Shown: positions 1,750 to 24,614, numbered from the stretch's first letter. The stretch is 64,000 bases of DNA from an uncultured Rikenellaceae bacterium (GCA_964446825.1 CAYUQR010000001.1:94767-158766); one strand, 5' to 3'. Numbers and translations are program-made. Notes: a model not told the origin generated them from the letters alone.

Positions 1750-1792
1750 ATATAAAATCCGCAGGTATAATTTCAGGAATCAGTTTTAGACT

Positions 1793-4071: not shown

Positions 4072-4092
4072 AACGGGCTGCAAATATAGCAA

Positions 4093-5346: not shown

Positions 5347-5399
5347 AGTATTTTGTTATTTCGGTATTTCGTTATGGCGTATCATAGTTAATTCATTTG

Positions 5400-7985: not shown

Positions 7986-8174
7986 ATTATCAAAAAAGTA
8001 TCAACCGGCTAAATTTACAGTGCATAAAGTTAATTCATTTCAAGAAATAACTTCCTTTAATGGTTTAAGGTTAAAAACTCAGAAACCACTGAACTTATTG
8101 TTGGAAAGGTGAAAAGTTGAGCATACTCAGATACCTCTAAGTACTCCAGGCACTTTAGGCACTCCAACCTTCTA

Positions 8175-8942
8175 TTATTTTAAGTATTTGATATTATGAT
8201 TTTCGGGATTGTTAATTACAGAAAATGTATAGAATGTATTATTGAAGACATTAATCAGAAGGATCTTTCCTGATAAAACATTCCCTGTTCCGGTTAATAT
8301 TTTAATCACTTCATTAGCCATATAGGTTCCTGTTATCCCGGGAAGAACCCCGAACAGACCCACATCCGCAGGATGGGGGTTTTTATAGTCTGTATTTTTG
8401 GTTTGGGGGTTGTAGCACCTGTATGTTGGTCCTCCCTTATAGTTAAAAACAGCAACAATTCCTTCAAATTTATAAATTGATCCGTGCACCATGGGTTTAT
8501 CAAGAATAACACAGGCGTCGTTAATAATGTATCTCGTGTCCAGGTTATCAGTGGCGTCCACCACTACGTCATAATCCTTTAGAATATCCAGAGCGTTGGA
8601 TGAATCCAACCGCAGGTTGATTATTTCAAGTTCAACCAGTGAATTAAGATGTTCAAGCCTGTTTTTCGCTATAATTGATTTTAATTTTCCTACATCAGAA
8701 GATCCGTATAATACCTGTCTTTGAAGATTTGTTTCATCTACCATATCGAATTCAACAACTGAAATTTTACCGATACCGGCAACGGTAAGATATAGCAGTA
8801 CAGGACAGCCAAGTCCTCCGGCACCCACTATCAGAACCCTTGCATTTTTCAGTTTCTCCTGCCCTTTCAACCCGATTTCCGGGATCATTATCTGTTTATT
8901 GTAACGTCGGATTTCCCTGGGGGATAACAAATTGGATTCCAT
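8175..8942 (-). CDS. ThiF/MoeB/HesA family adenylyltransferase (E1-like)
   Basis: Rossmann motif 'VLIVGAGGLGCPVLLYL', 'NLQRQ' and 'DATDN' are typical of MoeB/ThiF. No C-terminal rhodanese domain. Confidence 0.85.
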   Translation of the reverse strand: MESNLLSPREIRRYNKQIMIPEIGLKGQEKLKNARVLIVGAGGLGCPVLLYLTVAGIGKISVVEFDMVDETNLQRQVLYGSSDVGKLKSIIAKNRLEHLNSLVELEIINLRLDSSNALDILKDYDVVVDATDNLDTRYIINDACVILDKPMVHGSIYKFEGIVAVFNYKGGPTYRCYNPQTKNTDYKNPHPADVGLFGVLPGITGTYMANEVIKILTGTGNVLSGKILLINVFNNTFYTFSVINNPENHNIKYLK

Positions 8943-8975
8943 TTAAAATAAATTTTTATATAATGCAAATATACG

Positions 8976-9004
8976 GTAGAGCCGGCCAATTTGGCCGGCT
9001 CTAC
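8976..9004 (-). terminator. GC-rich perfect hairpin downstream of the sigma/anti-sigma/barrel operon
   Basis: GTAGAGCCGGCCAATTTGGCCGGCTCTAC forms a 12-14 bp perfect stem. It lies 38 nt after the stop of 9042..9983 (-) and before the ThiF-like start. The flanking U-tract is weak. Confidence 0.6.
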
Positions 9005-9041
9005 AATGCAAAAAACAAATTTATTTTATGGAATGAAAATA

Positions 9042-9983
9042 TTAATCGTTAAATGTAAATGCAATTCCTACTTCGAAAGGGTATAAATCGTAACCGCCGG
9101 GACCTTTGCCTGATTGAAACAGCGGCGTTACATAATAGGTTCCGTATATCTGGAAATTACCATAGCCGACACGAGCAGTTCCGCCATAACGCAGCATATT
9201 AAGACTGAAATCCTTGTATGATTTAACTTTTGACCCGGTCTCATAGACCATTTTAGTATGCGAGCCTAATTTAACGGCACCGATCGGGCCTGCTGCGATA
9301 TTCAGACAATGGTTATCAACAGGAATCTGAATTTCCAGCAATACAGGAAGATGCAGATAAATGGTTGCAAGCTTGGATTTTTTAAGATTGGTTCCCGGGT
9401 CGAGCTCTTCAATTACTCCGTTATTGCCTTTTATTATACTATTGTTTCCGTCGAACTTATAGTTGTTCCAGTTTAATCCGAGTCCGGTAACAAGTCCGAT
9501 ATGCCTGGTAAATCCAATGTTCAGCTGTGAAAAATTGAGATTGAAACTGGCTGATTTACCCGAATTAAGCGACATGTAATCGATATCTGATGGTACAGAA
9601 AAACTATTGTCGGATGTTAAATAATTATTAAACCCGAATTCAATAGCAGTCCAATGTCCCCTGAACCTGTCTGCTCTTCTGTAATGAAACCTGTCATTGT
9701 CATTATTGTCCCATTCATCAGCTTCTGAGTATTTTTTAAAACTGAACCTTGGACCTTCAAGCGATTCCAGTAAACTGAGGCCTCTGTTGCCTATTTTCAG
9801 ATCGTAAGTTGAATCGCTTTCTTCAAACCTCACTTTATCATTGCCTATGGTAACCTGTGTGGTTTCATTTTCATTAGCTTTGTTTGCCTCTTTTTTTTCA
9901 GTCTGGCTTTCTGCTGATATATTCTGACTGAATCCGTTTATTATTATTGTTATAAACAATATTATTAGACCTGCCTTCTTCAT
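9042..9983 (-). CDS. Outer-membrane beta-barrel protein (porin-family-like)
   Basis: Signal peptide 'MKKAGLIILFITIIINGFSQ'. Alternating aromatic/glycine beta-strand pattern, and a C-terminal 'GIAFTFND'. Confidence 0.6.
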   Translation of the reverse strand: MKKAGLIILFITIIINGFSQNISAESQTEKKEANKANENETTQVTIGNDKVRFEESDSTYDLKIGNRGLSLLESLEGPRFSFKKYSEADEWDNNDNDRFHYRRADRFRGHWTAIEFGFNNYLTSDNSFSVPSDIDYMSLNSGKSASFNLNFSQLNIGFTRHIGLVTGLGLNWNNYKFDGNNSIIKGNNGVIEELDPGTNLKKSKLATIYLHLPVLLEIQIPVDNHCLNIAAGPIGAVKLGSHTKMVYETGSKVKSYKDFSLNMLRYGGTARVGYGNFQIYGTYYVTPLFQSGKGPGGYDLYPFEVGIAFTFND

Positions 9984-10043
9984 GGTTTGTAAAATTAAAT
10001 AGTTAAACTTTTCAGAGATGGGACGAACAGTGAATGAAAAAAG

Positions 10044-11144
10044 TTACGGAAGAGGTTCAGATTTTTTAACCGGAGCATTAAATTTCAACATTCTTGAACT
10101 GAAATAAATCGATTTAACATTTCCATCAACATCGGTTTTTTCATTAAGAGCCATTTCCCAGCCAAGTAATTTATTTAGTCCGGTAATTCCGGCTTCTGCT
10201 ATTTCATAAGGCTTAAGGGGAGTATCATTTACTTTTTTCTCTCTGAGGATCTTATCCCTGAATGTTCTTGCGATGAACTTTCCTATATTACTTCTTCCAT
10301 CATCATAATCAATAGCTACAGGAGAAAGAGATGAGGCAATCAACTTGTTTCCTTCAGTTACCTGGAAAAGGTTAATTTCTGCGTGAACCAGGATCTTTAT
10401 AACAGGCATTTCATTATTCCGTGTGTTTGTTCTAAGCGAATCATCTTCTGAATTTGTAAGGGCATCAGGGGGGATATTAGCCGAGATATTTCCTTTTACC
10501 TTATTAAAAGTGTTTTCTTTCTTCCGGTTTGTGACGGCTACTATATTATTTACTACCTGTTTTTCCTGATTAATCTGAAGTTGAGGCCTTTCATTATTAG
10601 TATCAGGTATGATGATTTGAGATGAAATATTTGTTTTTTCAGTGATATTTCGTGGTATAAGAAGCCAGGCTGTGATTATCAAGGCCACAGTTGCAGCAGC
10701 GCTTAATCCTATTACAGACATCCTGATAACTTTTTGAACGTGAGTCCGCTTTATCAGTTGTTTTTTATGTTCGAAATTGACTTTTTGGGGAGTAAGTCGT
10801 GCCTTCTGGATCAGCTCGAAGCTTCTCTTTTTTTCAGGATCATTACCAATGATCGACAAAAGCTCGGTTCTCTGATCATCGGAAAGATCATCCTCAAGGT
10901 AAGCTACACAGAGGTATTCAAATTGAGATACGGAAAGGTCGGGAATGCCCTTTTTAAGCACACTTTTATGCAGGAAAGACTCTTGCGAAGGTATCAGCCT
11001 GAAAGAAGACAATTCTTCAAATTCTTCCCTGATATCAGGGTTTTCATCAAGGAACAGCTTAAGCTCTTCTGCCTGATGATCGCTTAAATTGCCATCGAGC
11101 CAATCAATAATCCATATTTCATAATTTGACCTGTCAATCTGCAT
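10044..11144 (-). CDS. Putative anti-sigma factor (single-pass membrane protein)
   Basis: Starts 3 nt after the sigma gene stop. The N-terminal acidic helical motif occurs twice ('WLDGNLSDHQAEELKLFLDENPD', 'YLEDDLSDDQRTELLSIIGNDPE'). Central TM 'VIGLSAAATVALIITAWLLI'. Confidence 0.55.
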   Translation of the reverse strand: MQIDRSNYEIWIIDWLDGNLSDHQAEELKLFLDENPDIREEFEELSSFRLIPSQESFLHKSVLKKGIPDLSVSQFEYLCVAYLEDDLSDDQRTELLSIIGNDPEKKRSFELIQKARLTPQKVNFEHKKQLIKRTHVQKVIRMSVIGLSAAATVALIITAWLLIPRNITEKTNISSQIIIPDTNNERPQLQINQEKQVVNNIVAVTNRKKENTFNKVKGNISANIPPDALTNSEDDSLRTNTRNNEMPVIKILVHAEINLFQVTEGNKLIASSLSPVAIDYDDGRSNIGKFIARTFRDKILREKKVNDTPLKPYEIAEAGITGLNKLLGWEMALNEKTDVDGNVKSIYFSSRMLKFNAPVKKSEPLP

Positions 11145-11146
11145 AG

Positions 11147-11632
11147 CTATAGGACCGTTTCAATTTTTCCGATATAACATTTAAGTGCAATACGTCCACG
11201 ATAAATGTTTATTTTTACCTGGGCTTCACTCAAACCTGTAATTTCGCCTATTTCTTTATAGCTGTATCCTTCGTAATCCCTTAGCAAAACTGATGTTTTT
11301 TGCTGTTCGGGCAGCCTGTCAAGAGCCTGGTGGAGAATTTCATTAAGATCGCTGTAATGTGAATCATAGATCATCTCCCTGTAATTTGATTCTTCGATGC
11401 TTGTTATTCTTTTTTCTTTTCTTATAATATCAATCATTGTATGATAGGCTGTTGAAAAAAGCCACGATTTAACTACAACGTATTCGATTTCTGCAACATG
11501 TCTCCACAGTTTTTCAAAACTGTCCTGGACAATATCATTAGCCCTGTCTTCATCCTTAAGATTTCCAAGGATGAAGCGGTAAACCGAGTCGGCATACTCT
11601 TCAACAGACCTGTTATATTCCTTAACCGTCAT
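11147..11632 (-). CDS. ECF (sigma-70 family) RNA polymerase sigma factor
   Basis: Region 2 'DIVQDSFEKLW' and region 4 'LRDYEGYSYKEIGEITGLSEAQVKINIYRGR'. I chose the ATG at 11632 (MTVKEYNRS). The track's longer ORF to 11770 runs into the repeat array and looks non-coding. Confidence 0.85.
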   Translation of the reverse strand: MTVKEYNRSVEEYADSVYRFILGNLKDEDRANDIVQDSFEKLWRHVAEIEYVVVKSWLFSTAYHTMIDIIRKEKRITSIEESNYREMIYDSHYSDLNEILHQALDRLPEQQKTSVLLRDYEGYSYKEIGEITGLSEAQVKINIYRGRIALKCYIGKIETVL

Positions 11633-11731
11633 AACATGAATTACAATACAAAGACGGATGAGATTCCGAAAAGTTACAGCTAAGTTAAAATTATTATGGG
11701 AACAGGCGACCGGCAACCGGCACTTCGTGCC

Positions 11732-11932
11732 GTAATTTGCTTCGCTGTAATTTGCCCTTCGTGCCGTCATTTGCCTGCGGCGTCATTCAGTTGTCATTAG
11801 CGCTTCGCGCGTCATTTGGCCCTTTGGGCTGACATTGATAGTAATTAATTATATATCAAAGAATTACTATGATTTACAATTGAATGACCACAGAATGACT
11901 ACCGAATGACAATTGAATGACCAATGAATGAC
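11732..11932. repeat. Quasi-palindromic array of the word GTCATT / AATGAC (7 copies on the left arm, 5 phased copies on the right arm)
   Basis: GAATGAC occurs at 11882, 11893, 11904, 11915 and 11926, an exact 11-bp period. GTMATT words occur at 11732, 11747, 11766, 11782, 11793 and 11811, with GACATT at 11831. AT-rich centre carries AGTAATT/AATTACT. Confidence 0.85.
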
Positions 11933-11969
11933 TTTAGGGCCCAGAGTCTAGTGTCCAGCGTCCAGTGCC

Positions 11970-13583
11970 TTATTTCGGCTGATACACCCTAACCCAGTCT
12001 ATCTCCATGGATGTTATGCCGTTAACAGGCTTATCAAGTCCTCCAGCAAGCAGAACATACATTGGGTCCTGAGGTATTTCTGATGTCTGGGTGGAAACCA
12101 CAGTGTTGTTTATTTTCCAGACAAGCTTATCAGCAGTCCATTCGAGGGTAAAAATATAGAAATTGTTTGCGTATCGCGATCCCAGTGATTTTTTTGTTGC
12201 GTTTTCGTTAGAAGAGAAATAGTCAAACAAGACTTTCCCGTTAGATGTTCTGCAAATATCGATGTGAGGGGTAATCTTATCGGCAAGCATCCAGAAGGCG
12301 TTTTTGGCATTCGGATTTCCAAGCCTGATCTTGGCTGAGAAAATACCATATTTCTGCCTGAAACTGTTACCGGAATTAATAAGTCCTGAGGTATAGCTGA
12401 ATTCTTTTGAGGTAAAGCCGTTAGCTGCTGACCACACCTTGCCATTAACTTTCTGTGGTTTGGTATTTATTTTAAGGATACTATTCCTCAGCTCAAAATT
12501 GTCTTTTTCAGTATATGCCTGAAGATCTGACTCCACAGAATACCTGTCTTTAAGGAGTTTCTCGCCCCAATAGTAATTGGTGAGCCATTTTTTAGTATCA
12601 AGATTATCGTTTTCAAATTCATCGCTGAAAGTCAGTTCTCTGTTTTTTAAAACATTGAATTTGTTGGAATCCTTAATTTTAAAATACCAGATAATATCCG
12701 GATTCTTTTTCAGCTTGTCATACTCCTGCGTCTGTTTGGACATTTCTGTTTTTTCAAATCTCTTTTTATCGAGCAGGTACTCTTTCTTTTCTCTGAATTC
12801 AGGTGAGGCAAGATATTCTTTAAGTTCACCATATCTTGCAAGTCGTGAAGATCCTTCCGTATTGAGGTAATTAGCATACTCTTTTGAAGCCTTGAATTTG
12901 AAATATTCTTTAATATCAGGAGATGCTTTGAGCCTTTTGTATTCCAGAAGCTTTTTATATTCTTCGGTATCTTTGAAAGTAATGGGCTTCATATTCTTTT
13001 TTGCCTGAAATTCAGACGATTTAACCAGTTTATCCAATTCTTCATATCTGAGAACAGTCTTAGTTCTTTTGTTCTCGTCTTTTCCTCCTGTTTTCAGGAA
13101 GGCCTTTATTTCAGGATCCTTTTTAAGGCTTTTATATTCCAGGTATTTGCGGTATTCTTCACTGTCCTTAAAAGTGACAGGTTTCATTTTTTGTTTTCCC
13201 CTGAATTCCGATGATTGTAAAAATTTTTCAAGTTCTTCAAATTCATTTATTTTATCAGAGCCATCCATCTCCTTAAATCTCTTAAGGTAGGTGTTGGAAG
13301 TTGTTTTGAAATAAAGAATGATGTCTTTTGCTTTTCGCAGGGCCGAGAACTCTTTTTCCTTTAAATATTCCTCAGAATTCTTGTACTTTAGAGACTCGAT
13401 CTCTTTTCTTTTATTAACGAAATCTGAAGAATTAACCAATCCATTCAGCTCATTGTATCTTGCCAGCTGATCAGATTCCGAAAAGGCAGTGAGTTTATCA
13501 AATTCAGCAACCAGTGCTTTTTCAGCTTGCTCAATTTTAGAAGTCGATGGGATCATTCCCAGAAGAAGCTTGAGACTTGCCAT
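11970..13583 (-). CDS. K/E-rich repeat protein with C-terminal GH16-like (concanavalin-like) domain, catalytic motif not conserved
   Basis: The C-terminal ~220 aa look GH16-like ('FSDEFE', 'AFWML', 'EIDWVRVYQ'). Four ~50-aa N-terminal repeats ('SSEF..K.MKP.TFKD.EEY.K.LEYK.LK..P.IK'). No signal peptide is evident. Confidence 0.7.
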   Translation of the reverse strand: MASLKLLLGMIPSTSKIEQAEKALVAEFDKLTAFSESDQLARYNELNGLVNSSDFVNKRKEIESLKYKNSEEYLKEKEFSALRKAKDIILYFKTTSNTYLKRFKEMDGSDKINEFEELEKFLQSSEFRGKQKMKPVTFKDSEEYRKYLEYKSLKKDPEIKAFLKTGGKDENKRTKTVLRYEELDKLVKSSEFQAKKNMKPITFKDTEEYKKLLEYKRLKASPDIKEYFKFKASKEYANYLNTEGSSRLARYGELKEYLASPEFREKKEYLLDKKRFEKTEMSKQTQEYDKLKKNPDIIWYFKIKDSNKFNVLKNRELTFSDEFENDNLDTKKWLTNYYWGEKLLKDRYSVESDLQAYTEKDNFELRNSILKINTKPQKVNGKVWSAANGFTSKEFSYTSGLINSGNSFRQKYGIFSAKIRLGNPNAKNAFWMLADKITPHIDICRTSNGKVLFDYFSSNENATKKSLGSRYANNFYIFTLEWTADKLVWKINNTVVSTQTSEIPQDPMYVLLAGGLDKPVNGITSMEIDWVRVYQPK

Positions 13584-13893
13584 TGTAAAATTGGTTTATG
13601 TACAACTGATAAAGATAAAAAATCTTTCCAGAATATCCGTTCACCCGGCTCTAAATATTTGCGTTTAAGGTTTTACGGATACCCTGAAGTAATAAAACGT
13701 ACTAAAATTGGTATTATTAGTAATCAGCTTTTTAATAGCCCGACCTGTAAATGGATTTTCTCAGGACTAATTACAAATATTTTTTCAAATTTTATAAAAT
13801 TATTTGGATTTAATATTTTCGTGTTTTATCTTTGACCGACCGTTCAATCATAAAATATCATAATTCATGTCTGAAATTAAGAATTAACTAAGA

Positions 13894-14532
13894 ATGTCAC
13901 CAAAGACACCAGAACAGTTCCAGGAGATAAGAGAAGAAAAGAGAACTCTTATAATGGATATTGCACTGAAATATTTTGCGAGTGAAGGTTACCATAAGAC
14001 CACAATTAGCCAGATTGCAAAGCATGCAGGTATCTCAAAGGGACTTATGTATAATTATTTTAAGAGCAAGGAACATTTGCTCAGCGATATTATTGACCGG
14101 ACAATGGAGGATATCGGACGATATTTTGATCCGAATAATGATGGGTTTCTGACTGAGCAGGAATTTGAACTTTTTATTAGGAAACTATTTAATGTTCTCA
14201 GGGAAAAAATTGATTTCTGGAGGCTGTTCTATCAGTTATTGATGCAAAATGAGGTAAGGCAACAACTAATGAAATCGACCCTGGGGCCGGTAAAAAATCC
14301 TCAGGATGTTTATTCAAACAGCAGTAAATTCATGAAGGTAGTCACAGAAATTATGGTAGATTATTTTTTCAGAAAAAAAGAGAGGAAACCTGAAGATTAT
14401 GATCCGGTACTCGAAATGAATATGTTCATTTACACCATTGAGGGATTTGCTATGATGACAGTATATATGGATGAAGTTGATGAAATTTATTATGAGAAAA
14501 CCATAAACAAGATAATTGAACTTTATAAATAG
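13894..14532 (+). CDS. TetR/AcrR family transcriptional regulator
   Basis: N-terminal HTH 'YHKTTISQIAKHAGISKGLMYNYFKSKEHL'. Confidence 0.9.
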   Translation: MSPKTPEQFQEIREEKRTLIMDIALKYFASEGYHKTTISQIAKHAGISKGLMYNYFKSKEHLLSDIIDRTMEDIGRYFDPNNDGFLTEQEFELFIRKLFNVLREKIDFWRLFYQLLMQNEVRQQLMKSTLGPVKNPQDVYSNSSKFMKVVTEIMVDYFFRKKERKPEDYDPVLEMNMFIYTIEGFAMMTVYMDEVDEIYYEKTINKIIELYK

Positions 14533-14539
14533 ATTGGTT

Positions 14540-15304
14540 ATGAAGAAGTTATTAAAGACACTCTTTTTTTCAGGATATCTGATTTCAACTTTTATGGTAC
14601 TTTCTGCCCAGGGCTTAACTGCCGCTGAAATAATTAAAAAGGCTGATGAAAAATTCAATGGAGAAAAATCGAGTATGATGGTGATGTCTATGACAATAAT
14701 TCGTCCGACATGGCAACGGACAGTAGAATTTAAAAACTGGACAATGGGCAGGGATTATGCTCTTACTCTGATAACTGCTCCGGCAAAGGATGTCGGACAG
14801 ACCTTCCTCAAAAGAGGGAATGAGATGTGGAACTGGAATCCTTCAATAAGCAGGCTGATCAAGCTGCCTCCTTCAATGATGTCGCAGGGGTGGATGGGAT
14901 CAGATTACACCAACGATGATATTATGAAGGAATCATCGGTTGTGAATGATTACACGCATGAGATAACCGGAGAAGAGACCATTGAAGGAAGGGAGTGCTA
15001 CAGAATTAAAATGGTTGCAAAAGAGAATGCGGCAGTCGTTTGGGGACACCAGGTAAGATGGGTGGACAAGAAAGAATTTCTGGTACTTAAAGCTGAATAT
15101 TATGATGAGGATGGAGTTCTGATAAGAACAGAGACAGGCAGTGATATTAAAGATATGGATGGAAGGATGATCGAGACCAGAATTGTGCTTACTCCGGTTG
15201 ATGAACCAGGCAACAGTACTGTTATAATAATAAAAGATATCAAATTCAATATTCCCGTGCAGGAGAGTTTTTTCTCTCAGCAGAATATGAAAAACATCCG
15301 TTAA
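14540..15304 (+). CDS. LolA-like periplasmic protein (outer membrane lipoprotein-sorting protein family)
   Basis: Signal peptide 'MKKLLKTLFFSGYLISTFMVLSAQ'. ~250-aa beta-rich body resembling the LolA-like 'lipoprotein-sorting' family that accompanies FtsX-type ABC systems. The ATG at 14540 avoids overlap with tetR. Confidence 0.65.
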   Translation: MKKLLKTLFFSGYLISTFMVLSAQGLTAAEIIKKADEKFNGEKSSMMVMSMTIIRPTWQRTVEFKNWTMGRDYALTLITAPAKDVGQTFLKRGNEMWNWNPSISRLIKLPPSMMSQGWMGSDYTNDDIMKESSVVNDYTHEITGEETIEGRECYRIKMVAKENAAVVWGHQVRWVDKKEFLVLKAEYYDEDGVLIRTETGSDIKDMDGRMIETRIVLTPVDEPGNSTVIIIKDIKFNIPVQESFFSQQNMKNIR

Positions 15305-15315
15305 CAGGCATTATT

Positions 15316-16728
15316 ATGAAAAGTTATTTACTGGCATGGCGAAACCTTTGGAGAAACAAAAGAAGAACACTGATAACTGTAGCTTCGGTTTTCTTTGCAG
15401 TATTTTTTGCCCTGCTCATGCGATCGCTTCAGCTTGGTTCATACGACCACATGTTCCGGAATGTAATAGAATCATATACAGGCTATATTCAGGTACAGAA
15501 TGAGGATTTCAAAGATAACTCCACGGTTGATAATTCTTTCGATTTCACCCCGGAGATAAAGCAACTTATCCTGAAAGACAAGAATGTAACTAATCTGGTC
15601 CCCCGTTTCGAATCGTTTGCTCTGGCATCTACCGGGCCGCTTACAAAAGGTGTGCTTGTTATGGGTATAGATCCTGAGAAGGAATCACTCCTTTCAAATG
15701 TTAAAGAAAGACTTGTCAGGTATAAGCTTACTGATAAAGCTATTGATACTCTTAAAAAACTAAATCTTCCTGAAAAAGTAAAATCCAAACTTGATCTTTT
15801 CAGGGGGGAAAGTTATTCTTCAGAATCAATTCTTCAGCTTGATCTTGGAATAAAAGACAAAGAGGCAAATTCTATTTTGCCTGAAATAAAAAGAGTGACA
15901 TCATTCAGCAATGGATATTTAACTGCCGGTAAAAAGGAGGCTCTTTTAGGAGACAAGCTTGCCAAATATCTGAATCTTAATATTGGAGATACTCTTGTTA
16001 TGATAGGACAGGGATATCATGGAACTACTGCAGCTGCAAAATTCAGAATTGCAGGCATTGTCAAGCTGCCAACTCCGGATATAGATAATAAAATAGTATA
16101 CCTGCCAGTGGATGTTTGCCAGGATTTTTATAATGCTCCAGGCATGCTTACTTCCATGGCATTATGCGTAAAGGATAACAACGACAAGGCTGTTAACAGG
16201 ACCCTCAGATCGCTGGGGCAAGAACTTCCTTCCCCGCTCAGGCTCCTGGGATGGAGAGAGATGAATGCCTTGCTGATTAACCAGATGGATGCCGATAATA
16301 AAAGCGGGGCAATTATGATTGGAATACTCTACCTGGTAATTGCATTCGGGATATTTGGCACAGTCCTCATGATGACCACTGAACGAAGACGTGAATTCGG
16401 AGTTCTGGTCGCTATTGGGATGCAGAAATCAAAACTGGCTGGTATTGTGACGTTTGAGATGATCTACATTGGTCTGCTCGGAATATTGAGCGGAGTAGCT
16501 GTTGCCCTTCCCGCGATAATTATTGGTCAGTATAACCCGATAAGATTCTCCGGCGAATATGCAAAAGTATACGAAAGCTATGGAATGGAGCCAATAATGC
16601 CATTCATGCATATAAATTACTACTTCCTGTGGCAGTCAGTAATTGTTGCTCTGATTGTGGCAATAGCAATTTCTTACCCGGTAAGAAAGATATATAAAAT
16701 GACAGTGGTCAACTCTTTAAAAGCATAA
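15316..16728 (+). CDS. ABC transporter permease, FtsX/MacB/LolC-type with ~300-aa periplasmic domain
   Basis: 'AWRNLWRNKRRT' N-terminus and TM1, then a large extracytoplasmic segment. Three C-terminal TMs follow with an 'ERRREFGVLVAIGM' FtsX motif. Confidence 0.85.
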   Translation: MKSYLLAWRNLWRNKRRTLITVASVFFAVFFALLMRSLQLGSYDHMFRNVIESYTGYIQVQNEDFKDNSTVDNSFDFTPEIKQLILKDKNVTNLVPRFESFALASTGPLTKGVLVMGIDPEKESLLSNVKERLVRYKLTDKAIDTLKKLNLPEKVKSKLDLFRGESYSSESILQLDLGIKDKEANSILPEIKRVTSFSNGYLTAGKKEALLGDKLAKYLNLNIGDTLVMIGQGYHGTTAAAKFRIAGIVKLPTPDIDNKIVYLPVDVCQDFYNAPGMLTSMALCVKDNNDKAVNRTLRSLGQELPSPLRLLGWREMNALLINQMDADNKSGAIMIGILYLVIAFGIFGTVLMMTTERRREFGVLVAIGMQKSKLAGIVTFEMIYIGLLGILSGVAVALPAIIIGQYNPIRFSGEYAKVYESYGMEPIMPFMHINYYFLWQSVIVALIVAIAISYPVRKIYKMTVVNSLKA

Positions 16729-16739
16729 ATAATTTTAAA

Positions 16740-18167
16740 ATGATCTGGAAAACAGCATGGAAGAATGTGTGGCGAAACAAGGTAAGAAGCCTTGTTGTCA
16801 TCTCTTCGGTTACAATAGGGATATTTGCAGGAGTTTTTGCAGTTGCCCTTATGAACGGAATGATAGCTCAGCGTGTTGACGATGCACTGAATGAGGAGAT
16901 TTCGGATATACAGATTACAAATAAGAATTTCAGGATCAATAATGATCCTCAGCTGGTAATTGATGATCCTTCGAGAGTTATTTCAATGATAAAATCGGTG
17001 GATGGGATAAGTGGAATGGTTGAAAGAACGATAATCACAGGTATGGCCAATACTGCTTTAAAAAGCACCGGTGTACAGATAACCGGAATTGAACCGGAAA
17101 AGGAAAAACAGGTTTTTACTTTGTATAAAAAGATCGTCCCGGGCACCGGCGATTTCTTTGAAAAAGAATCAAAATACAACCTTGCTCTTATCGGGGAAGA
17201 TCTGGCTAAGGAACTGGGGATAGTCAGGTATTATATTGATACTGCCACACTTGCAAGGTTAAAAGAAAAAGGATTTCCTGAAATGATCATTAATAAACTT
17301 GAACCTATTACAGGTCAGCGATTTACCAACGAAAATAAATTCATTAAAAAGATGAGTGCTGTTTTTACAGCCAGGGAAGCAAAAAAATACGGAGCTATTA
17401 TAAAAAAGGAAGCCCGGACATTCAGTGAAGGAGCCCGTCTGACATTAACTTTCCTTGATAAAGATAATAACCAGGTTGGTGCGATGTTCAGACTTACAGG
17501 ATTGTATGATATATCGAACAGTGTGTTCGAAAAAACCATGGTGTTTGTCAGGGATTCAGATCTTAAAAGGCTAATGGGCTTGTCCGACAGTTCTTCCCAT
17601 GAGATCATTGTTAAAATCGATAATCTTGACCAGACTGAATCAATAACTAATACACTGGCTGAAAAACTTCCTGATCTTGAAGTTATAAGTTGGAAAAAAT
17701 TGGCACCCGACCTTGCTATGATGACGGATTTGGTCCAGGAATTTTATCTTATTTTCGGTATTATCATTCTCGCCGCCCTCGCATTTGGGATAGTCAATAC
17801 CATGCTGATGGTTGTGCTTGAAAGAACAAAAGAGATCGGGATGCTAACGGCTATCGGGATGAATAAGAAGAAAGTCTTTTCAATGATAATGCTTGAATCG
17901 ATATTTCTCTCACTTATAGGCGGTGTTACGGGGATGATAGTAAGCTATATAGTTGTAAGGTTAACTTCAAATACAGGGATCAATTTATCCCAATATGCCG
18001 AAGGATTTGCAGCTCTTGGCTATTCGGCAGATGTATATCCGCAGATTAGTGCCGGATTCTTTGGTATTGTAACCATTTTGATAATAATAACGGGCATATT
18101 ATCGTCTGTTTACCCTGCTATGAAAGCTCTTAAATTAAACCCTGTTGAGGCCATTAGAACAGAATAA
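16740..18167 (+). CDS. ABC transporter permease, FtsX/MacB/LolE-type (paralogue of the preceding gene)
   Basis: 'AWKNVWRNKVRS' N-terminus, a large periplasmic domain, 'ERTKEIGMLTAIGM' and a C-terminal 'PAMKALKLNPVEAIR'. Confidence 0.85.
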   Translation: MIWKTAWKNVWRNKVRSLVVISSVTIGIFAGVFAVALMNGMIAQRVDDALNEEISDIQITNKNFRINNDPQLVIDDPSRVISMIKSVDGISGMVERTIITGMANTALKSTGVQITGIEPEKEKQVFTLYKKIVPGTGDFFEKESKYNLALIGEDLAKELGIVRYYIDTATLARLKEKGFPEMIINKLEPITGQRFTNENKFIKKMSAVFTAREAKKYGAIIKKEARTFSEGARLTLTFLDKDNNQVGAMFRLTGLYDISNSVFEKTMVFVRDSDLKRLMGLSDSSSHEIIVKIDNLDQTESITNTLAEKLPDLEVISWKKLAPDLAMMTDLVQEFYLIFGIIILAALAFGIVNTMLMVVLERTKEIGMLTAIGMNKKKVFSMIMLESIFLSLIGGVTGMIVSYIVVRLTSNTGINLSQYAEGFAALGYSADVYPQISAGFFGIVTILIIITGILSSVYPAMKALKLNPVEAIRTE

Positions 18168-18192
18168 TATTTAACATTTAAATTGATATGTC

Positions 18193-18879
18193 ATGAAAGT
18201 GCTTGATATAAAAAATGTTCATAAAATCTATAATGAATCGGAATTCAAGGTTCACGCAGTAAATGATGTTACTCTTGAATTTCAGGAAGGCGAGTTTGCG
18301 GCAATTGTAGGACCATCAGGTTCGGGCAAAACAACACTTCTGAATCTTATCGGCGGGTTGGATAATCCTAGCTCCGGTGAAATTATTATTGACGGAACAA
18401 ATCTCGCGAAACTGAAATCATCAGAACTTATTGATTTCAGGTTGAGGAACATCGGTTTTGTGTTTCAGGCATATAATCTTATTCCTGTTCTGACAGCTAA
18501 GGAAAATGTTGAGTTCATAATGTCGCTCCAAAAGTGGTCGCGGCAGGACAGGGATGAAAGAACATTTGAACTATTGAAAGCCGTTGGTCTTGCTGACAGG
18601 ATTAACAGTCGTCCGTCAAAACTCTCGGGAGGCCAGCAGCAAAGAGTAGCTGTTGCCAGGGCCCTGGCTTCAAGACCAAAGTTCGTACTTGCAGATGAAC
18701 CTACTGCGAATCTCGATTCAAAATCAGCAACAACCCTGCTTGAAATAATGGAAAAGCTTAACCAGGAAGAAAAAATCACCTTTATATTCTCCACACACGA
18801 TGCAAGGGTTGTTAAAATGGCTCACCGGGTAATAACCCTTGAAGACGGGAAAGTTGTTTCGGATAATATCAGAAAATAA
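18193..18879 (+). CDS. ABC transporter ATP-binding protein (MacB/LolD-like)
   Basis: Walker A 'GPSGSGKTT', signature 'LSGGQQQR', Walker B 'FVLADEPT'. Confidence 0.95.
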   Translation: MKVLDIKNVHKIYNESEFKVHAVNDVTLEFQEGEFAAIVGPSGSGKTTLLNLIGGLDNPSSGEIIIDGTNLAKLKSSELIDFRLRNIGFVFQAYNLIPVLTAKENVEFIMSLQKWSRQDRDERTFELLKAVGLADRINSRPSKLSGGQQQRVAVARALASRPKFVLADEPTANLDSKSATTLLEIMEKLNQEEKITFIFSTHDARVVKMAHRVITLEDGKVVSDNIRK

Positions 18880-18897
18880 AAATTTAGAATAAGAAAT

Positions 18898-20052
18898 ATG
18901 TTTCGTATCCCTGCTCTTTCTTTATTAATTATTCTGGGCAGCACTTTTTCTTCATTCTCACAGGAAAAGACAAAGTTCCTGACTCTGAATGGTTATGTAA
19001 CTACCATGCAGAGTGTAATATTCGATTCTCTCTCGGGACCATTTATTAATGACAATCTTTTGCACAACAGGCTTAATTTTAAGGGATATGTAAATGATCA
19101 CATTACTTTTGCCACCGAATTCAGGAACCGGCTTTTTACTGGCGATATGGTAAAGTCCGGATCTTATTATGCTGAATCGACAGCCGCCGACCAGGGATGG
19201 GTTGACCTTTCCTGGAATATTCTTAATGAACCTTCCTATTTTCTTAATACAACCATCGACAGAATTTGGGTTGATTTTAATTATGGCAAGTTTCAGGCAA
19301 GGGTCGGACGACAGAGAATCAACTGGGGCCAGACTCTTGTCTGGAATCCCAATGATATTTTTAATGCATACTCATATTTCGATTTTGATTATGTCGAACG
19401 CCCGGGAAGCGATGCTGTAAGACTTCAGTATTATCCCGATTATTCATCGGCTCTTGAGGTCGCCGTTAAAGCCGATTACCATAATAATATTACTGCTGCC
19501 GCCCTGTACCGGTTTAACAAGTGGGGATTTGATATTCAATTCCTTGGCGGATATTTTAACAGCGAAGACCTGGTTGTCGGCACAGGATGGTCCGGATCAT
19601 TCGGGTCTCTTTCTTTCAGGGGTGAGGCAACCTGGTTTATGCCGGCAAAAAATCCTTTTAATAACACTGGAACGGGATTATTTACAGTTGGATTTGACAG
19701 ATCTTTTAAAGACAACTCGATGGCGCAACTGCAGGTCATGTACTGCAATAAACCGGTCGGCCTCAACAATTTTACATTTCTTTATAATGAGACCATGACA
19801 ACAAAAGACCTGGCTTTTTCAAAATTTTCGGCTTTTGGTTTGTTCTCATATCCGTTAACACCTCTTCTTACCATAACTGTCACAGCGATGTGGTTTCCTG
19901 ATCTTAAAGGCTATTTCTCAGGACCATCTCTTGATTATTCGCTTGCAGAAAATGTGGATTTTTCAATTTTCTGGCAACATTTTGACAGTAAAATGAACTC
20001 AGTAAGGCAAACAATAAATCTTGGCTTTCTCAGGGTTAAGTACAGTTTCTAG
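18898..20052 (+). CDS. Putative outer-membrane beta-barrel protein
   Basis: Signal peptide 'MFRIPALSLLIILGSTFSSFSQ', amphipathic strand pattern, and a C-terminal 'LGFLRVKYSF' with terminal Phe typical of OMPs. Confidence 0.55.
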   Translation: MFRIPALSLLIILGSTFSSFSQEKTKFLTLNGYVTTMQSVIFDSLSGPFINDNLLHNRLNFKGYVNDHITFATEFRNRLFTGDMVKSGSYYAESTAADQGWVDLSWNILNEPSYFLNTTIDRIWVDFNYGKFQARVGRQRINWGQTLVWNPNDIFNAYSYFDFDYVERPGSDAVRLQYYPDYSSALEVAVKADYHNNITAAALYRFNKWGFDIQFLGGYFNSEDLVVGTGWSGSFGSLSFRGEATWFMPAKNPFNNTGTGLFTVGFDRSFKDNSMAQLQVMYCNKPVGLNNFTFLYNETMTTKDLAFSKFSAFGLFSYPLTPLLTITVTAMWFPDLKGYFSGPSLDYSLAENVDFSIFWQHFDSKMNSVRQTINLGFLRVKYSF

Positions 20053-20091
20053 ATTTTTAATACTTTTGCCACATCATTAAAAATATTAACG

Positions 20092-20829
20092 ATGGCTCTT
20101 GTACATGAATTTGAAAGAAGCGGGAACTGGTTATTTAAAAGAAGAAGCTGGCTACCCGTATTTTTAATCATTCCCGGTGTTTTTGTGATGTACCTTGGCA
20201 ACAGGCAAGCCATCCTTTTTGATATGAGAGATGAGCTGATCTTTCTTGGTGTTAGTCTTTTTGGAGAGGTAATAAGGATTTTTACTGTTGGGTTTGCTCC
20301 GAAAAACACCTCGGGAAGAAACACAGTAAACGGGCAAATTGCCGATGAACTGAATGTTACAGGCATATATTCATTAGTGCGTCATCCGCTATATGTCGGG
20401 AATTTCTTCATGTGGCTCGGGCCGGTTCTTTTTATAAGGTCAACATGGTTTACTTTGATATTCGGTCTGGCTTACTGGCTTTATTATGAACGGATAATGT
20501 TTGCCGAAGAACAATTCCTAAGGAGGAAATTCGGGGAGATCTATGACAAATGGTCAGAAACGGTGGGTTCCTTTATACCATACTCATTAAGATATATTCC
20601 GTCAAAACTTACTTTTTCAGTCAGGAATGTTCTTAAGAGAGAGTACAACAGTTTCTTAAATATCTTTATAATATTTATAGTGCTTGACCTTTTCAGGAAT
20701 AATTTTCTTTCTGGAACGATTTACATGACAGAAATGTGGGTTTATCTAGGTATTCCAGCCGGTATTATATGGGTTGTGGTAAGGTCAATTCATAAATATA
20801 CAAGGTGGCTTGAGGTGGGAGGGCGATAG
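20092..20829 (+). CDS. ICMT/PEMT-like membrane methyltransferase family protein
   Basis: Multi-pass membrane protein with 'GIYSLVRHPLYVGNFFMWLG', the RHPxYxG motif of the isoprenylcysteine carboxyl / phospholipid methyltransferase superfamily. Confidence 0.7.
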   Translation: MALVHEFERSGNWLFKRRSWLPVFLIIPGVFVMYLGNRQAILFDMRDELIFLGVSLFGEVIRIFTVGFAPKNTSGRNTVNGQIADELNVTGIYSLVRHPLYVGNFFMWLGPVLFIRSTWFTLIFGLAYWLYYERIMFAEEQFLRRKFGEIYDKWSETVGSFIPYSLRYIPSKLTFSVRNVLKREYNSFLNIFIIFIVLDLFRNNFLSGTIYMTEMWVYLGIPAGIIWVVVRSIHKYTRWLEVGGR

Positions 20830-21665: not shown

Positions 21666-21974
21666 ATGATCAAATTAATAAACAGAATACTGTCATTCAT
21701 ATTTTCTCTGCCTGTTCTTTTTTACAGGTATTTCATCTCTCCATTCATACGACCTTCATGCCGGCATGTACCTACATGTTCACAATATATGATTGACGCA
21801 CTTAAAATACACGGACCCTTTACAGGTTTTTTAATGGGAACCGGAAGAATATTAAGATGCAGGCCGGGGGGAACACATGGCTATGATCCTGTTCCGGTTT
21901 TCAGGTTCCGGCGGTATAAACCATTACAAACCGTGCTGGGCAGGTGGAAAACAGAAAATCGGTTGAAACGTTAA
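21666..21974 (+). CDS. yidD: Membrane protein insertion efficiency factor YidD
   Basis: '[32 protein letters not shown]' is the YidD signature. I prefer the ATG at 21666 to the track start at 21570. It carries a basic C-terminal extension. Confidence 0.85.
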
Positions 21975-22723
21975 AAATTCAATTCTTCTTTGAGTTGTTT
22001 ATACCCTGACCTGCTGACCGGCAGTTTATCTCCTGACTGAAGGATGGCGATATGGTTATCTTTTCCGTATGGTTCAATTTTCTTGATCTCTTCAACCCTT
22101 ACAATATATGAACGATGTACTCTCACAAAATCATTTTTTGGAAGATTCTCTTCATAAAATTTCATTGTCTGTTGCTTTAATGCCTTGCCTGCAACATGAT
22201 AAATCATTACATAATCATCCTGGGCTTCAACATATCGTATCTGCTCAACGGGAATAAGATTGATTGCATTTCCTTTACGTACCACAATCCTGTTGACAGG
22301 GTTAACGGGATCAGGCTTTTTAGCAAGCAGCAGATTTGCCGGCATTTTATTTCCTGCCCCTGATTTTATCTTATCAATTGCCTTTTTAGCTGCCTCATGG
22401 AAACGTCTTTTGGGGAAAGGTTTCATAAGATAATCTACTGCATTAAGTTCAAAAGCCTTAATGGCAAACTGATCGTAAGCTGTTGTAAAAATAATTTCGG
22501 GTTTTTCAGTCAGAACCTCAACCAGTTCAATTCCGGTAAGTCTGGGCATCTGGATATCGAGGAATACAAGGTCAGGCTTCATCACTGTGATTGTTTTCAA
22601 CCCTGAAAAACCATCAGCACATTCAGCAATTACTTCAATATCATCTATCTCTGTTAAATAATGTTTAATTATTTCCCTTGCAGGTGCCTCATCATCAACT
22701 ATTAATGTTCTGATCTTTTTCAT
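21971..22723 (-). CDS. LytTR-family response regulator
   Basis: REC domain '[16 protein letters not shown]'. C-terminal LytTR DNA-binding domain '[10 protein letters not shown]'. Confidence 0.9.
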
Positions 22724-22797
22724 CTTTTTCCCTTATCTGCTATAAGAAGATCTGTGTTTACCGGTCAGTAAATTTATGTATTAATTTTTAAATGGCA

Positions 22798-23853
22798 TTA
22801 CTGATTTTCTTCAGGTATATATAGTTTTACTGTATATATACCATTTTCCCTGGATGTTGTGATCGATGCTTTTTTACCATAGAATAATTCCAGCCGCCGG
22901 GCAACATTTGTCAGTCCTGTTCCGGTTCCTTTCCTTAATGATGGGCTTGGATCATAATTATTGCTTATGATAATTTCGATATATCCGTCGCTGATCTTAG
23001 CTTTTGTCATGATCTTTACGCTTTCGGTACTCTCATAAACGCCATGTTTTACCGCATTCTCATAGAGTGGCTGTAACAGCATCACAGGGATTTTAAAACC
23101 AAGGCAATTGTCTTCAATGATCTCTTCTATTGTCAGTTTATCACCGAATCTTACTTTTTCGATATCAAGATATAACCTCAGGTTTTCAAGTTCATTTTGC
23201 AGGGAAACAGGTTGTTCATCTTTTCTTGAGAGTGCATACCGCATGAATTCCGAGAGTTTTACAATCATCTCTCTTGCTTTTTCAGGATCGGTTATTGTAA
23301 GGGAGCTTATCGAGTTCAGGCTGTTGAAAAGGAAGTGCGGATTAATTTGTGATCTCAGCATTTTAAGCTCGGTTTCTTTCACAAGGCTCTCCAGCCTGGC
23401 TGCTTTGGCATTCTTCTCAGAGAGGTTCGTAAGACTGACGAAAAGATAATATGTGAGGATGACAAGGCCATAAATAAAAACCCCTGCACCGATCCTGTAT
23501 GGCAAAGTGGCATTCCAGTATGCCTGGTAATTGTTTTGTTCAGGAAGCACTGTTGTCATAACAAGTTTTGTTACCAGTACCCATAAGCCCACAGTTATTG
23601 CTCCGGTGATTGTTAAATTGGAAACCAGAACCAGTACCCGCTTCTCCCCGGAATTGAAATACTGAAAAGGGTACCATACTGAAAGAGCTATTCCTGAATA
23701 AATCAACAGGGAAACCGGGCTGTCGATAAGGCTTAAATTAACAGAGCCTTCATAGACAAAATAAAATAAAACAGACTGGCCCAGCGCCAGGATCAGCCAG
23801 ACCAGCCACCAGACTATAAGTCGCACTCTGTTCTCAAGTACAGGGTGTTTCAT
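22798..23853 (-). CDS. LytS/YehU-type sensor histidine kinase
   Basis: Four to five N-terminal TMs, H-box 'QINPHFLFNSLNSI', and an HATPase with 'ENAVKHG' and 'GTGTGL'. Confidence 0.85.
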   Translation of the reverse strand: MKHPVLENRVRLIVWWLVWLILALGQSVLFYFVYEGSVNLSLIDSPVSLLIYSGIALSVWYPFQYFNSGEKRVLVLVSNLTITGAITVGLWVLVTKLVMTTVLPEQNNYQAYWNATLPYRIGAGVFIYGLVILTYYLFVSLTNLSEKNAKAARLESLVKETELKMLRSQINPHFLFNSLNSISSLTITDPEKAREMIVKLSEFMRYALSRKDEQPVSLQNELENLRLYLDIEKVRFGDKLTIEEIIEDNCLGFKIPVMLLQPLYENAVKHGVYESTESVKIMTKAKISDGYIEIIISNNYDPSPSLRKGTGTGLTNVARRLELFYGKKASITTSRENGIYTVKLYIPEENQ

Positions 23854-23864
23854 TATTTTAAATA

Positions 23865-24614
23865 TTAATAACTTTTAACCTCGCCTCCTCCAAATATAAC
23901 AGCTCCTCTTATTATTAGCTGTTTAGCCGGATCAATTGTCCTTCCTGGATTTAGTTTACGTGAATCGTTAAATCCTCCGAGTATAGGGGTAACTTCTATT
24001 GTAACGAACCAGTCATCAGGGACTATTATGGTTGCTCCCCCGAATATGCACGCAATTTCAAGTTCGGATCTTCCCAGAGCCAGGTTAGCTTTGGTAAGAT
24101 CGAGTTCTATACCTCCAAAAATAGCTGTAATCTTACCTCCTTTAAAGCTCTGTGATACAATCTGGCGTTCTCCCCCGCTGAAAATATTCACATAATCAAC
24201 CCAGTCATCTCCTGCGATTCCCTTTGTTGTAACAGCACCAATCCCGCGCCGTCTTGAAACGATGAAGATAACCCCGATAATGATAAATATCGAAGGCCAG
24301 AACATATTATATGCATGGAATGTCTCGCGGAATATCATCGGGATAAGGAAAAAGCCCCCAACGGCCATTACAATTACTCCGGCGGTTTTTTCAGTTGAAC
24401 CAAGGGTCATAATAAGACCCACCGCAACAAGAAGCATAGGCCAGCTGAAAACAACATGATCGATAAAGTCGGGGAACAAACCTGTGTTTCTCAGAACAAG
24501 GAATAATCCGACCAATACCAGGATAAATCCAATGATTGCGCGATTGTTTGTAAGATGATGATGTTCATGCCTTTGATGCAGATTATCACCTTTGTAGTTT
24601 TCATTTGTTTCCAT
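23865..24614 (-). CDS. LiaF-like membrane protein with His-rich N-terminus
   Basis: N-terminus 'HQRHEHHHL' and four TMs. C-terminal beta-rich 'GGIELDL..GGATIIVPDDW..GGGEVKSY' resembles the LiaF/YvqF (DUF2154-like) domain. Confidence 0.65.
   Translation of the reverse strand: METNENYKGDNLHQRHEHHHLTNNRAIIGFILVLVGLFLVLRNTGLFPDFIDHVVFSWPMLLVAVGLIMTLGSTEKTAGVIVMAVGGFFLIPMIFRETFHAYNMFWPSIFIIIGVIFIVSRRRGIGAVTTKGIAGDDWVDYVNIFSGGERQIVSQSFKGGKITAIFGGIELDLTKANLALGRSELEIACIFGGATIIVPDDWFVTIEVTPILGGFNDSRKLNPGRTIDPAKQLIIRGAVIFGGGEVKSY

Follow-up and report, generated by a model that had tools for sequence, protein, structure and literature searches.

A TetR-headed gene cluster of an uncultured Rikenellaceae bacterium as a candidate ABC-driven, adaptor-independent shuttle to the outer membrane

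Seven genes, all on the + strand, are packed between positions 13894 and 20829 of a 64,000-nucleotide (nt) stretch of DNA from an uncultured Rikenellaceae bacterium (GCA_964446825.1, CAYUQR010000001.1:94767-158766). This whole stretch is called the window hereafter, and its positions are counted from the first letter. According to the open reading frame (ORF) listing, the genes are separated by gaps of 7, 11, 11, 25, 18 and 39 nt, and they encode a TetR-type regulator, a LolA-like protein, two permeases and an ATPase of the ATP-binding cassette (ABC) kind, Type VII, an outer-membrane beta-barrel, and a membrane methyltransferase. We propose that this cluster may encode an adaptor-independent shuttle exporter resembling the Lol pathway, in which a Type VII ABC complex drives a hydrophobic cargo outward, and we hold this reading with as much doubt as confidence. 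The cluster itself is real and well beyond chance, since its five-gene core is colinear in 57 of 58 Bacteroidales loci and recurs in other phyla and classes. In total, 80 Bacteroidales loci were retrieved, and counts of the core refer to the 58 that have enough upstream flank. An initial annotation, made from the sequence of the window, had placed the seven co-directional ORFs exactly at the coordinates listed below, and every one of its domain assignments held when compared with Pfam, whose gathering cut-off is abbreviated as GA.

13824..13850, + strand: -7 promoter box and 18-bp operator-like element (the element at 13833-13850), a motif conserved across loci
13894..14532, + strand: TetR/AcrR-family regulator (TetR_N, 59.9 bits)
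14540..15304, + strand: LolA-like carrier, predicted soluble in the periplasm, of the 'LolA3-type' family PF17131 (189.6 bits, E 5.5e-56, GA 30)
15316..16728, + strand: permease A, Type VII ABC (FtsX 41.4 bits, MacB_PCD 32 bits, both above GA)
16740..18167, + strand: permease B, Type VII ABC (FtsX 71.3 bits, MacB_PCD 29.3 bits, both above GA)
18193..18879, + strand: ABC ATPase of the LolD/DevA/MacB type, a separate polypeptide (ABC_tran, 125.6 bits)
18898..20052, + strand: outer-membrane beta-barrel of 384 aa, a short member of the DUF1302 superfamily (PF06980, 29.1 bits)
20092..20829, + strand: ICMT/PEMT-family membrane methyltransferase, LmtA-like (PEMT 42.8 bits, ICMT 29.5 bits)

How would such a machine work? 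Two ATPase subunits would power a heterodimer of permeases A and B by mechanotransmission, which has been established for MacB and LolCDE. The cargo would then be passed to the soluble LolA-like protein and shielded there while it crosses the periplasm. The carrier would dock on the 18-stranded DUF1302-type barrel, which may insert the cargo into the outer membrane or free it at the cell surface. The operon would be read from one promoter and repressed by its own TetR via an operator overlapping the -7 box; expression would be conditional because TetR represses this promoter, and the inducer would most likely be a lipid-like or hydrophobic ligand. The hand-overs between the parts, the outward direction and the place of the barrel in LolB's position are what we infer, and a lipid or another hydrophobe seems the most likely cargo, in preference to bulk lipoproteins. 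In Type VII ABC systems, a dedicated periplasmic partner is characteristic, and lipid-like substrates are often extracted.

Permeases A and B are paralogues (24% identity, E 1e-30), and by hydropathy each has a first transmembrane (TM) helix at about residues 17-36, a periplasmic domain of ~297 aa (A) or ~304 aa (B), and three C-terminal TM helices, in agreement with the domain of about 300 aa that had been claimed for each at first. In both permeases, TM1 and TM2 enclose a large periplasmic domain in the four-TM FtsX arrangement that marks Type VII ABC systems (MacB fold), and the cognate ATPase is encoded by the adjacent gene, kept in 57 of the 58 loci. This ATPase is the most conserved component, with 70-92% identity between loci. 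Against the NCBIfam models, permeases A and B score 84.8 and 108.3 bits, respectively, with lolCE (TIGR02212, cut-off 362.45), and the ATPase scores 240.2 bits with LolD (TIGR02211, cut-off 307.75), 234 with DevA (cut-off 295.8) and 214 with the nucleotide-binding domain (NBD) of MacB. Because the Lol equivalog cut-offs are missed, the three proteins are regarded as Type VII ABC parts near Lol and not as Lol orthologues. In the PDB, permease A matched LolF, LolE, LolC and MacB, and permease B matched LolF (7e-19), YtrF, MacB, LolC and LolE. Thus, the parallel with the Lol parts list drawn by the initial annotation stands, with lolCE and LolD as the nearest curated models and LolF, LolC, LolE and MacB as the nearest solved permeases.

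The window cluster and the Lol pathway are alike in having two paralogous four-TM FtsX permeases, a separate LolD-like ATPase and a soluble carrier of the LolA superfamily, and also in having no continuous duct and, so far as the direction of the window system may be deduced, in operating from the inner membrane to the outer membrane. They differ in several respects. The carrier of the window belongs to PF17131 (LolA3-type) and not to canonical LolA; the acceptor position is taken by an integral barrel of about 18 strands, whereas that of Lol is the lipoprotein LolB; the genes of the window form one TetR-regulated operon; and the periplasmic domains of its permeases have ~300 aa, compared with ~220 aa in LolC and LolE. 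No LolB-type lipoprotein with a lipobox was found among the genes of the cluster, which were the genes examined for it, and the barrel stands in that position.

Some variation among the permeases was also observed. A lineage-specific insert of 65-85 residues lies at about residues 136-200 of permease A (window 15721-15915) and 151-235 of permease B (17190-17444). It is missing in the permeases of ~410 aa from loci L073-75, L077 and L080 and from Vibrio and Persicobacter, and is present in one paralogue alone in L066 and L078. The periplasmic domains of the permeases diverge fastest: those of L003, L022 and L024 are 22-50% identical to those of the window, while in the same three loci the carrier is ~70%, the ATPase 83-87% and the barrel 62-75% identical. 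A role of the periplasmic domains as the specificity determinant would fit their fast divergence and the insert.

No HlyD-type adaptor (membrane fusion protein, MFP) and no TolC/OEP protein was matched among the seven genes, the flanking genes and the scanned window ORFs of at least 150 aa. The MFP had been reported missing by the initial annotation, and its absence held in the cluster, in the 64-kb window and in the homologous loci. Could a conventional pump of the MacAB-TolC kind nevertheless be encoded here, with its adaptor and duct located elsewhere on the genome and with the LolA-like protein and the barrel as accessory or unrelated products? The permeases carry MacB_PCD and FtsX domains, the ATPase is akin to the MacB NBD, mechanotransmission is presumably shared, and the view is limited to 64 kb of the genome. 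However, the window cluster differs from MacAB-TolC in having neither MFP nor TolC-like duct, in its unfused NBD, and in its permease, which is a heterodimer and not a homodimer; the duct is replaced by a porin-like barrel together with a soluble carrier. In MacB-type pumps, the MFP is normally encoded in the same operon, yet no HlyD or OEP gene is seen in the window or beside the copies in Vibrio, Persicobacter, Burkholderia and Ralstonia. Moreover, the LolA-like gene and the barrel are invariant partners of the engine, in 57 of the 58 loci and across phyla. A pump with a distant adaptor is thus very improbable.

The second part of the proposed shuttle is the carrier. Translation from the ATG at 14540 gives a clean signal peptide for signal peptidase I, cleaved between MKKLLKTLFFSGYLISTFMVLSA and QG, and an alternative TTG start lies at 14516. 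Because the signal peptide is of this type and lacks a lipobox Cys, the protein is predicted to be soluble in the periplasm. The assignment of 14540..15304 to a LolA-like fold was borne out by a profile search, with the PF17131 match at E 5.5e-56, and by matches to LolA-superfamily structures in the PDB, 3BUU (5.7e-20), 9TP6 (5.6e-18), 4Z48 and 3BK5, among which 9TP6 is LolA3 of Porphyromonas gingivalis. Its orthologues, encoded in the clusters of Vibrio, Burkholderia, Ralstonia and Persicobacter, are 40-48% identical to it. No match to the canonical LolA family was obtained in Pfam at E <= 0.01, and NCBIfam assigned a family neither to this protein nor to the barrel. LolA3 of P. gingivalis has been reported not to bind its cognate LolB and to lack the Arg signature of LolA and the Leu signature of LolB.

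The LolA-like protein also has a weak match to the N-domain of MucB_RseB (24.4 bits). Since non-transport regulators exist among Type VII systems, one may imagine a signalling device in the style of FtsEX-EnvC or BceAB, in which ATP-driven changes of conformation would regulate the LolA-like protein, a lipid sensor akin to RseB, and nothing would be transported. Conservation in the cluster, however, does not extend to any partner enzyme, anti-sigma factor or kinase and includes a dedicated outer-membrane channel instead; furthermore, the sister modules described below have RND (resistance-nodulation-division) exporters where the ABC engine would be. Therefore, we give very little credit to signalling as the function of the cluster.

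The third part, the barrel, has a signal peptide cleaved between ...SSFS and QE and ends with KYSF. It matches DUF1302 (PF06980) with 29.1 bits over a GA of 23.2, covering in part the family, namely its conserved core, and many of its homologues carry a precomputed PF06980 match. No relative was found when its sequence was compared with the PDB. Its AlphaFold2 (AF2) model, made with an alignment of 60 diverse homologues, has a predicted local distance difference test score (pLDDT) of 93.5 and a predicted template modelling score (pTM) of 0.85, and the best Foldseek matches of this model are monomeric 18-stranded channels: the Campylobacter major outer-membrane protein MOMP, Serratia ChiP (query TM-score, TMq, 0.66), OccD/OccK and AlgE. 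A 2026 study reported genuine DUF1302 proteins with the same structural neighbours (Occ, AlgE). Read from the secondary-structure string of the model, the barrel would have about 18 strands with short periplasmic turns. Invariant columns of the alignment form the motif GRQRINWG..VWNPNDIFN..DFDYxERPGSDA, which in the model appears to sit in a 31-residue third loop (residues 140-170), and by analogy with L3 of porins a fold into the lumen is probable for this loop.

The barrel family is large. It comprises more than 5,485 clusters at 90% identity, and at 50% identity 1,680 clusters (E <= 1e-3) or 461 clusters (E <= 1e-30), all of them labelled 'hypothetical protein', and relatives come from at least 582 GTDB species genomes. 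With a profile built on the barrel family, matches were obtained to the barrels of the operons of Persicobacter (1e-124), Vibrio (1e-100), Ralstonia (3e-57) and Burkholderia (3e-50), and also to barrels encoded beside LolA_like and MMPL/RND genes in Haliovirga (3e-20), in Prevotella nigrescens, where it is annotated as DUF1302 (2.5e-7), and in Ilyobacter (8.6e-7). The dedicated beta-barrel of the initial annotation holds as a barrel, though not as an orphan, since profile and fold place it in the DUF1302 superfamily. This placement ties the cluster to recognised modules composed of DUF1302, a LolA-superfamily protein and an RND/MMPL exporter.

What are these modules? One group is the DUF1302/DUF1329/BNR/RND gene sets, such as AmeABCD of Castellaniella, Sama_1588-1591 of Shewanella and PP_0765-0766 of Pseudomonas. 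Cofitness links the DUF1302, DUF1329, BNR and RND genes in Proteobacteria, and export of an envelope component or of hydrophobes has been proposed; AlphaFold-Multimer predicted a DUF1302-DUF1329 complex with an interface pTM (ipTM) of 0.84, and AmeABCD has been implicated in monoterpene efflux. Like these modules, the window cluster encodes a barrel matching PF06980 and, adjacent to it in the core, a protein of the LolA/LolB superfamily, together with an inner-membrane exporter and without MFP. The PF17131 carrier belongs to the same superfamily as DUF1329, judging from their shared PDB relatives 4Z48, 3BK5 and 3BUU. On the other hand, no RND, MMPL or BNR gene is present in the cluster. The engine there is RND/HAE3 and in the window it is Type VII ABC; DUF1329 has ~450 aa and the mature PF17131 carrier ~230 aa; the barrels have ~540-600 aa against 384 aa in the window; and the BNR/Ycf48-like protein of those modules has no counterpart in the window cluster.

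A second group of relatives is found in the same phylum. On the plasmid NZ_CP082843.1 of P. nigrescens (115-9089), genes for TetR, two ABC proteins, MMPL, LolA_like and DUF1302 form an operon in this order. The same architecture has been reported for P. intermedia and for PG1175-81 of P. gingivalis, which are among the loci most strongly induced by haem or iron limitation; the TetR-MMPL-LolA3-DUF1302 operon is induced 13- to 136-fold under such limitation, and TetR of the P. gingivalis and Prevotella operons is reported to autoregulate. The PG1178-81-type operons and the window cluster share the leading TetR, an inner-membrane exporter, the PF17131 LolA-like protein and the DUF1302 barrel. They differ in the engine, which is MMPL/RND plus two fused half-type ABC exporters there, and in the TetR, which has neither the EF-hand nor the operator motif of the window. 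No link of the cluster to haem was seen in the window. LolA_like of this P. nigrescens plasmid is a close orthologue of LolA3 of P. gingivalis (9TP6, PGN0947; E 4.7e-92), and this orthology implies that LolA3 itself belongs to the haem-limitation-induced PG1178-81-type operon. In the passages of the two LolA3 papers that were consulted, the operon context of LolA3 is not mentioned.

Because the LolA_like and DUF1302 genes are also joined to MMPL/RND engines in Prevotella, Haliovirga and Ilyobacter, the two may be considered as a modular 'outer-membrane delivery pair', and the window cluster is best classed, as far as genes can tell, as the ABC-driven form of this pair, a module of known kind that is functionally dark. 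No description of the ABC-type module was found in the literature searched, and a review on MacB does not mention it. Comparison with YbbAP-TesA, Escherichia coli's fourth system of the Type VII ABC kind, is instructive here. The fused permeases (~830 aa) of the Burkholderia and Ralstonia versions resemble YbbP in this respect. However, the partner of YbbAP is a substrate-destroying hydrolase, and that of the window engine is a LolA-fold carrier with a barrel; therefore, the window cluster would imply delivery and not degradation.

Conservation of the core was surveyed in order to see how stable the combination is. The order LolA-like protein, permease A, permease B, ATPase and barrel is complete and colinear in the 57 Bacteroidales loci, so that the synteny anticipated by the initial annotation was found once co-occurrence was checked, and near-constant offsets between the genes leave no room for an MFP or any other extra gene in the core of these 57. 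Persicobacter (Cytophagales) has the same six genes, TetR included. On chromosome 2 of Vibrio campbellii, all five core genes are present and their order is unchanged, with identities of 43% for the LolA-like protein, 59% for the ATPase and 33% for the barrel, and plasmids of Burkholderia thailandensis and Ralstonia carry genes for the LolA-like protein, the ATPase, a fused two-unit permease of ~830 aa and the barrel. No MFP or OEP gene occurs in the flanks of the Persicobacter, Vibrio, Burkholderia and Ralstonia copies. The barrel was matched in seven plasmid records, at least six of which also carry a LolA-like gene. Thus, restriction of the cluster to Bacteroidota, as might have been supposed at first, does not hold, and judging from gene content the ABC-driven module is widespread, being present in Bacteroidales, Persicobacter, Vibrio, Burkholderia and Ralstonia.

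A related arrangement was observed on a plasmid of Enterobacter bugandensis (NZ_CP110986.1, ~1-10100), where genes for an ABC ATPase, a permease, LolA_like and a 462-aa hypothetical protein lie between a ketosynthase gene and an ACP (acyl carrier protein) S-malonyltransferase gene. The 462-aa protein has no match to the barrel profile. The gene content of this plasmid region suggests lipid or polyketide biosynthesis with its own LolA-like module, which would export the lipidic product. On the plasmids of B. thailandensis (L081) and Ralstonia insidiosa (L086), a gene for an AarF/UbiB-family kinase follows the barrel, and these clusters are located inside a heavy-metal island with P-type ATPase, YHS and ICMT-family/CzcN-like genes.

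Is the cargo a lipoprotein after all? A specialised lipoprotein route, for example for surface-exposed lipoproteins with the barrel as a Slam-type translocon, would be in line with the closest curated models (lolCE, LolD), with the closest solved permeases (LolF, LolC, LolE) and with the membership of the carrier in the LolA superfamily. Bacteroidota have no known exporter for surface lipoproteins, and some such route must exist, because surface lipoproteins still reach their proper place there when every LolA and LolB is absent. Nevertheless, a quintuple mutant of Flavobacterium johnsoniae, lolA3 included, still exposes a reporter surface lipoprotein, and LolA3 neither has the signature residues of LolA and LolB nor binds LolB. 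Presence of the module in Vibrio, in Burkholderia and in a polyketide/fatty-acid-type cluster of Enterobacter points rather to small hydrophobic products, and control by TetR is typical of small-molecule efflux. A lipoprotein route is therefore unlikely, and export of a lipid or another small hydrophobe by the shuttle is preferred.

Several points weigh against this preferred reading and have to be set beside the evidence for it. The DUF1302 Pfam match of the barrel, at 29 bits, is weak and partial. The 80 Bacteroidales loci are fairly close relatives whose synteny is partly inherited, and independent support for synteny comes from a handful of proteobacterial and Cytophagales loci. Deletion of lolA3 in F. 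johnsoniae gave no phenotype, and no experiment on an ABC-type member was found in the literature searched. In addition, DUF1302 and DUF1329 genes are also part of catabolic clusters, growth on fatty esters requires them, and some authors read them as having uptake or esterase activity.

This last point leads to the idea of uptake, in which barrel and carrier import a hydrophobic nutrient, with help from the ABC complex in its entry or handling. The catabolic clusters that contain DUF1302/DUF1329 are those for monoterpenes, phenanthrene, p-cresol and steroids, and the fitness defects concern growth on Tween 20 and fatty esters. All characterised Type VII ABC systems, however, and the RND/MMPL engines found in their stead in sister modules, act outward or on the periplasmic side, none of them being an importer, and the cluster has neither a substrate-binding lipoprotein nor an importer-type permease. 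We consider uptake improbable, and an outward shuttle remains our choice.

A wider proposition may be put forward tentatively, although we would sooner expect it to fail in some part than to hold as a whole: the cluster may be the first member of a fifth functional class among Type VII ABC systems, namely a second, Lol-independent shuttle, built from an ABC extractor, a PF17131 carrier and a DUF1302-type barrel, that takes a non-protein lipid or another hydrophobe from the inner membrane to the outer membrane or the cell surface, present in many Bacteroidota and Proteobacteria, with an EF-hand TetR that acts as a Ca2+-sensing switch in this lineage. Traffic of hydrophobes other than lipopolysaccharide and lipoproteins to the outer membrane is largely an open question, more so in Bacteroidota, and the module offers a defined, four-protein route on which it can be tested. 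If true, a function would be given to LolA3 and to DUF1302 barrels, and the rule by which Type VII ABC systems take their function from the partner protein would be widened. The module also links orphan data, namely LolA3, which has a structure and neither phenotype nor LolB partner, the pleiotropic fitness effects of DUF1302 and DUF1329 genes, and the operon induced by haem or iron limitation.

What regulates such an operon? As in TetR-repressed efflux operons, a TetR_N regulator heads the genes, and a candidate operator is located at its promoter. The 18-bp element TGACCGACCGTTCAATCA (13833-13850) lies 43 nt upstream of tetR and abuts a TAtcTTTG box, which we take to be a Bacteroidota-type -7 box (consensus TAnnTTTG), and it is the sole strong match in the 64-kb window. 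Across loci, the element was scored with up to 4 mismatches within 200 nt upstream of the first cluster gene, which is tetR or else the LolA-like gene. It was found in 39 of the 45 loci bearing TetR, often twice, versus 1 of the 18 TetR-less loci, and TAnnTTTGA[CA] was found in 42/45 versus 0/18. This pattern fits autorepression by TetR through promoter occlusion. The general form of the 18-mer, TGACYNACCGTTCANTCA, is fused to the TAnnTTTG box, and two copies are often seen ~45 bp apart. Scans for sigma-70 promoters and intrinsic terminators did not rise above shuffled expectation and were uninformative on the limits of the operon.

The TetR linkage claimed at first is correct for the window, where TetR comes with a conserved operator, and has to be abandoned as a constant feature: tetR is present in 41 of the 58 loci and missing outright in the other 17, which makes it an optional add-on. 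The idea that the cluster is a conditional accessory system and not the housekeeping Lol machinery is in better shape, since the Lol cut-offs are missed widely, the operator-like element overlaps the promoter, and LolA3-type paralogues can be dispensed with and show no binding to LolB. The nearest folds to the AF2 model of TetR (pLDDT 82.5) are TtgR, FadR, FasR, PvrA and MtrR, and by sequence and fold taken together two groups stand nearest to it: acyl-CoA sensors (FadR, FasR, PvrA) and repressors of efflux pumps (TtgR, MtrR, NalC). These neighbours give a weak hint of a lipid-like or hydrophobic inducer.

This TetR has another feature, a canonical EF-hand loop, DPNNDGFLTEQE, at residues 79-90 (window 14128-14163). 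The EF-hand_1 Pfam score is 21.8 bits, below GA. Taken strictly, the EF-hand pattern D-x-[DN]-x-[DN]-G-x-[ILV]-x-x-x-[ED] occurs in 39 of 45 syntenic orthologues and in 113 of 120 database homologues, whose consensus is DPDKDGYLSEEE, and it is absent from all other ORFs of the window. Many TetR homologues have precomputed EF-hand matches in Pfam, and the AF2 model has the expected helix-loop-helix arrangement (helix 59-75, loop 76-87, helix 88-104). TetRs of the Persicobacter, Prevotella and Haliovirga clusters are devoid of the EF-hand. The EF-hand TetR may be Ca2+-responsive, and if it does bind Ca2+, it would stand out among regulators as a TetR repressor having a canonical EF-hand.

The methyltransferase gene at the end of the cluster tells a different story. 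The initial annotation had correctly recognised that a methyltransferase of the ICMT/PEMT family follows the barrel. The protein scores 223.5 bits over its full length with the NCBIfam model LmtA_Leptospira (TIGR04571), below the cut-off of 325, and is LmtA-like without being an equivalog. This model describes the lipid A 1-phosphate O-methyltransferase of Leptospira, and by its sequence the window protein may be an enzyme of Bacteroidales that methylates a lipid phosphate. The gene follows the barrel in 54 of 67 loci, and in most of these the downstream genes for a Zn-peptidase and YidD are kept too. It is missing from the clusters of Persicobacter and Vibrio and also from 13 diverged Bacteroidales loci in which the core is kept and the downstream synteny is lost. 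A place as a core part or as an enzyme modifying the cargo had been considered; these absences rule it out as a core part, and on the pattern of its occurrence we treat it as a lineage-specific neighbour. No terminator-like site was detected between the barrel and the methyltransferase gene in a scan that did not exceed shuffled expectation, and the arrangement suggests that the two are probably co-transcribed. Locus L080 retains the methyltransferase without the other downstream genes, and given this locus some functional link to the cluster is possible. Near the copies of Burkholderia and Ralstonia, ICMT-family genes are located in metal-resistance islands and are probably there by coincidence.

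Finally, the surroundings of the cluster may be described. The stop codon of the methyltransferase gene lies 1 nt before the convergent Zn-peptidase gene, so that the two ORFs directly abut. Three further ORFs of the window, all on the - strand, had no Pfam match at E <= 1e-5: 5400-7985, 39043-41940 and 62066-62674, of 861, 965 and 202 aa, respectively. Upstream of the cluster and divergent from it (10044-13583, - strand) are a pair resembling an extracytoplasmic function (ECF) sigma factor and its anti-sigma factor, and a protein of 537 aa that has a GH16 domain at its C-terminus. Downstream (21971-24614, - strand) are genes for a LytTR response regulator, a histidine kinase and a LiaF-like protein. 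These envelope-signalling genes, which bracket the cluster, are syntenic in most of the related loci.

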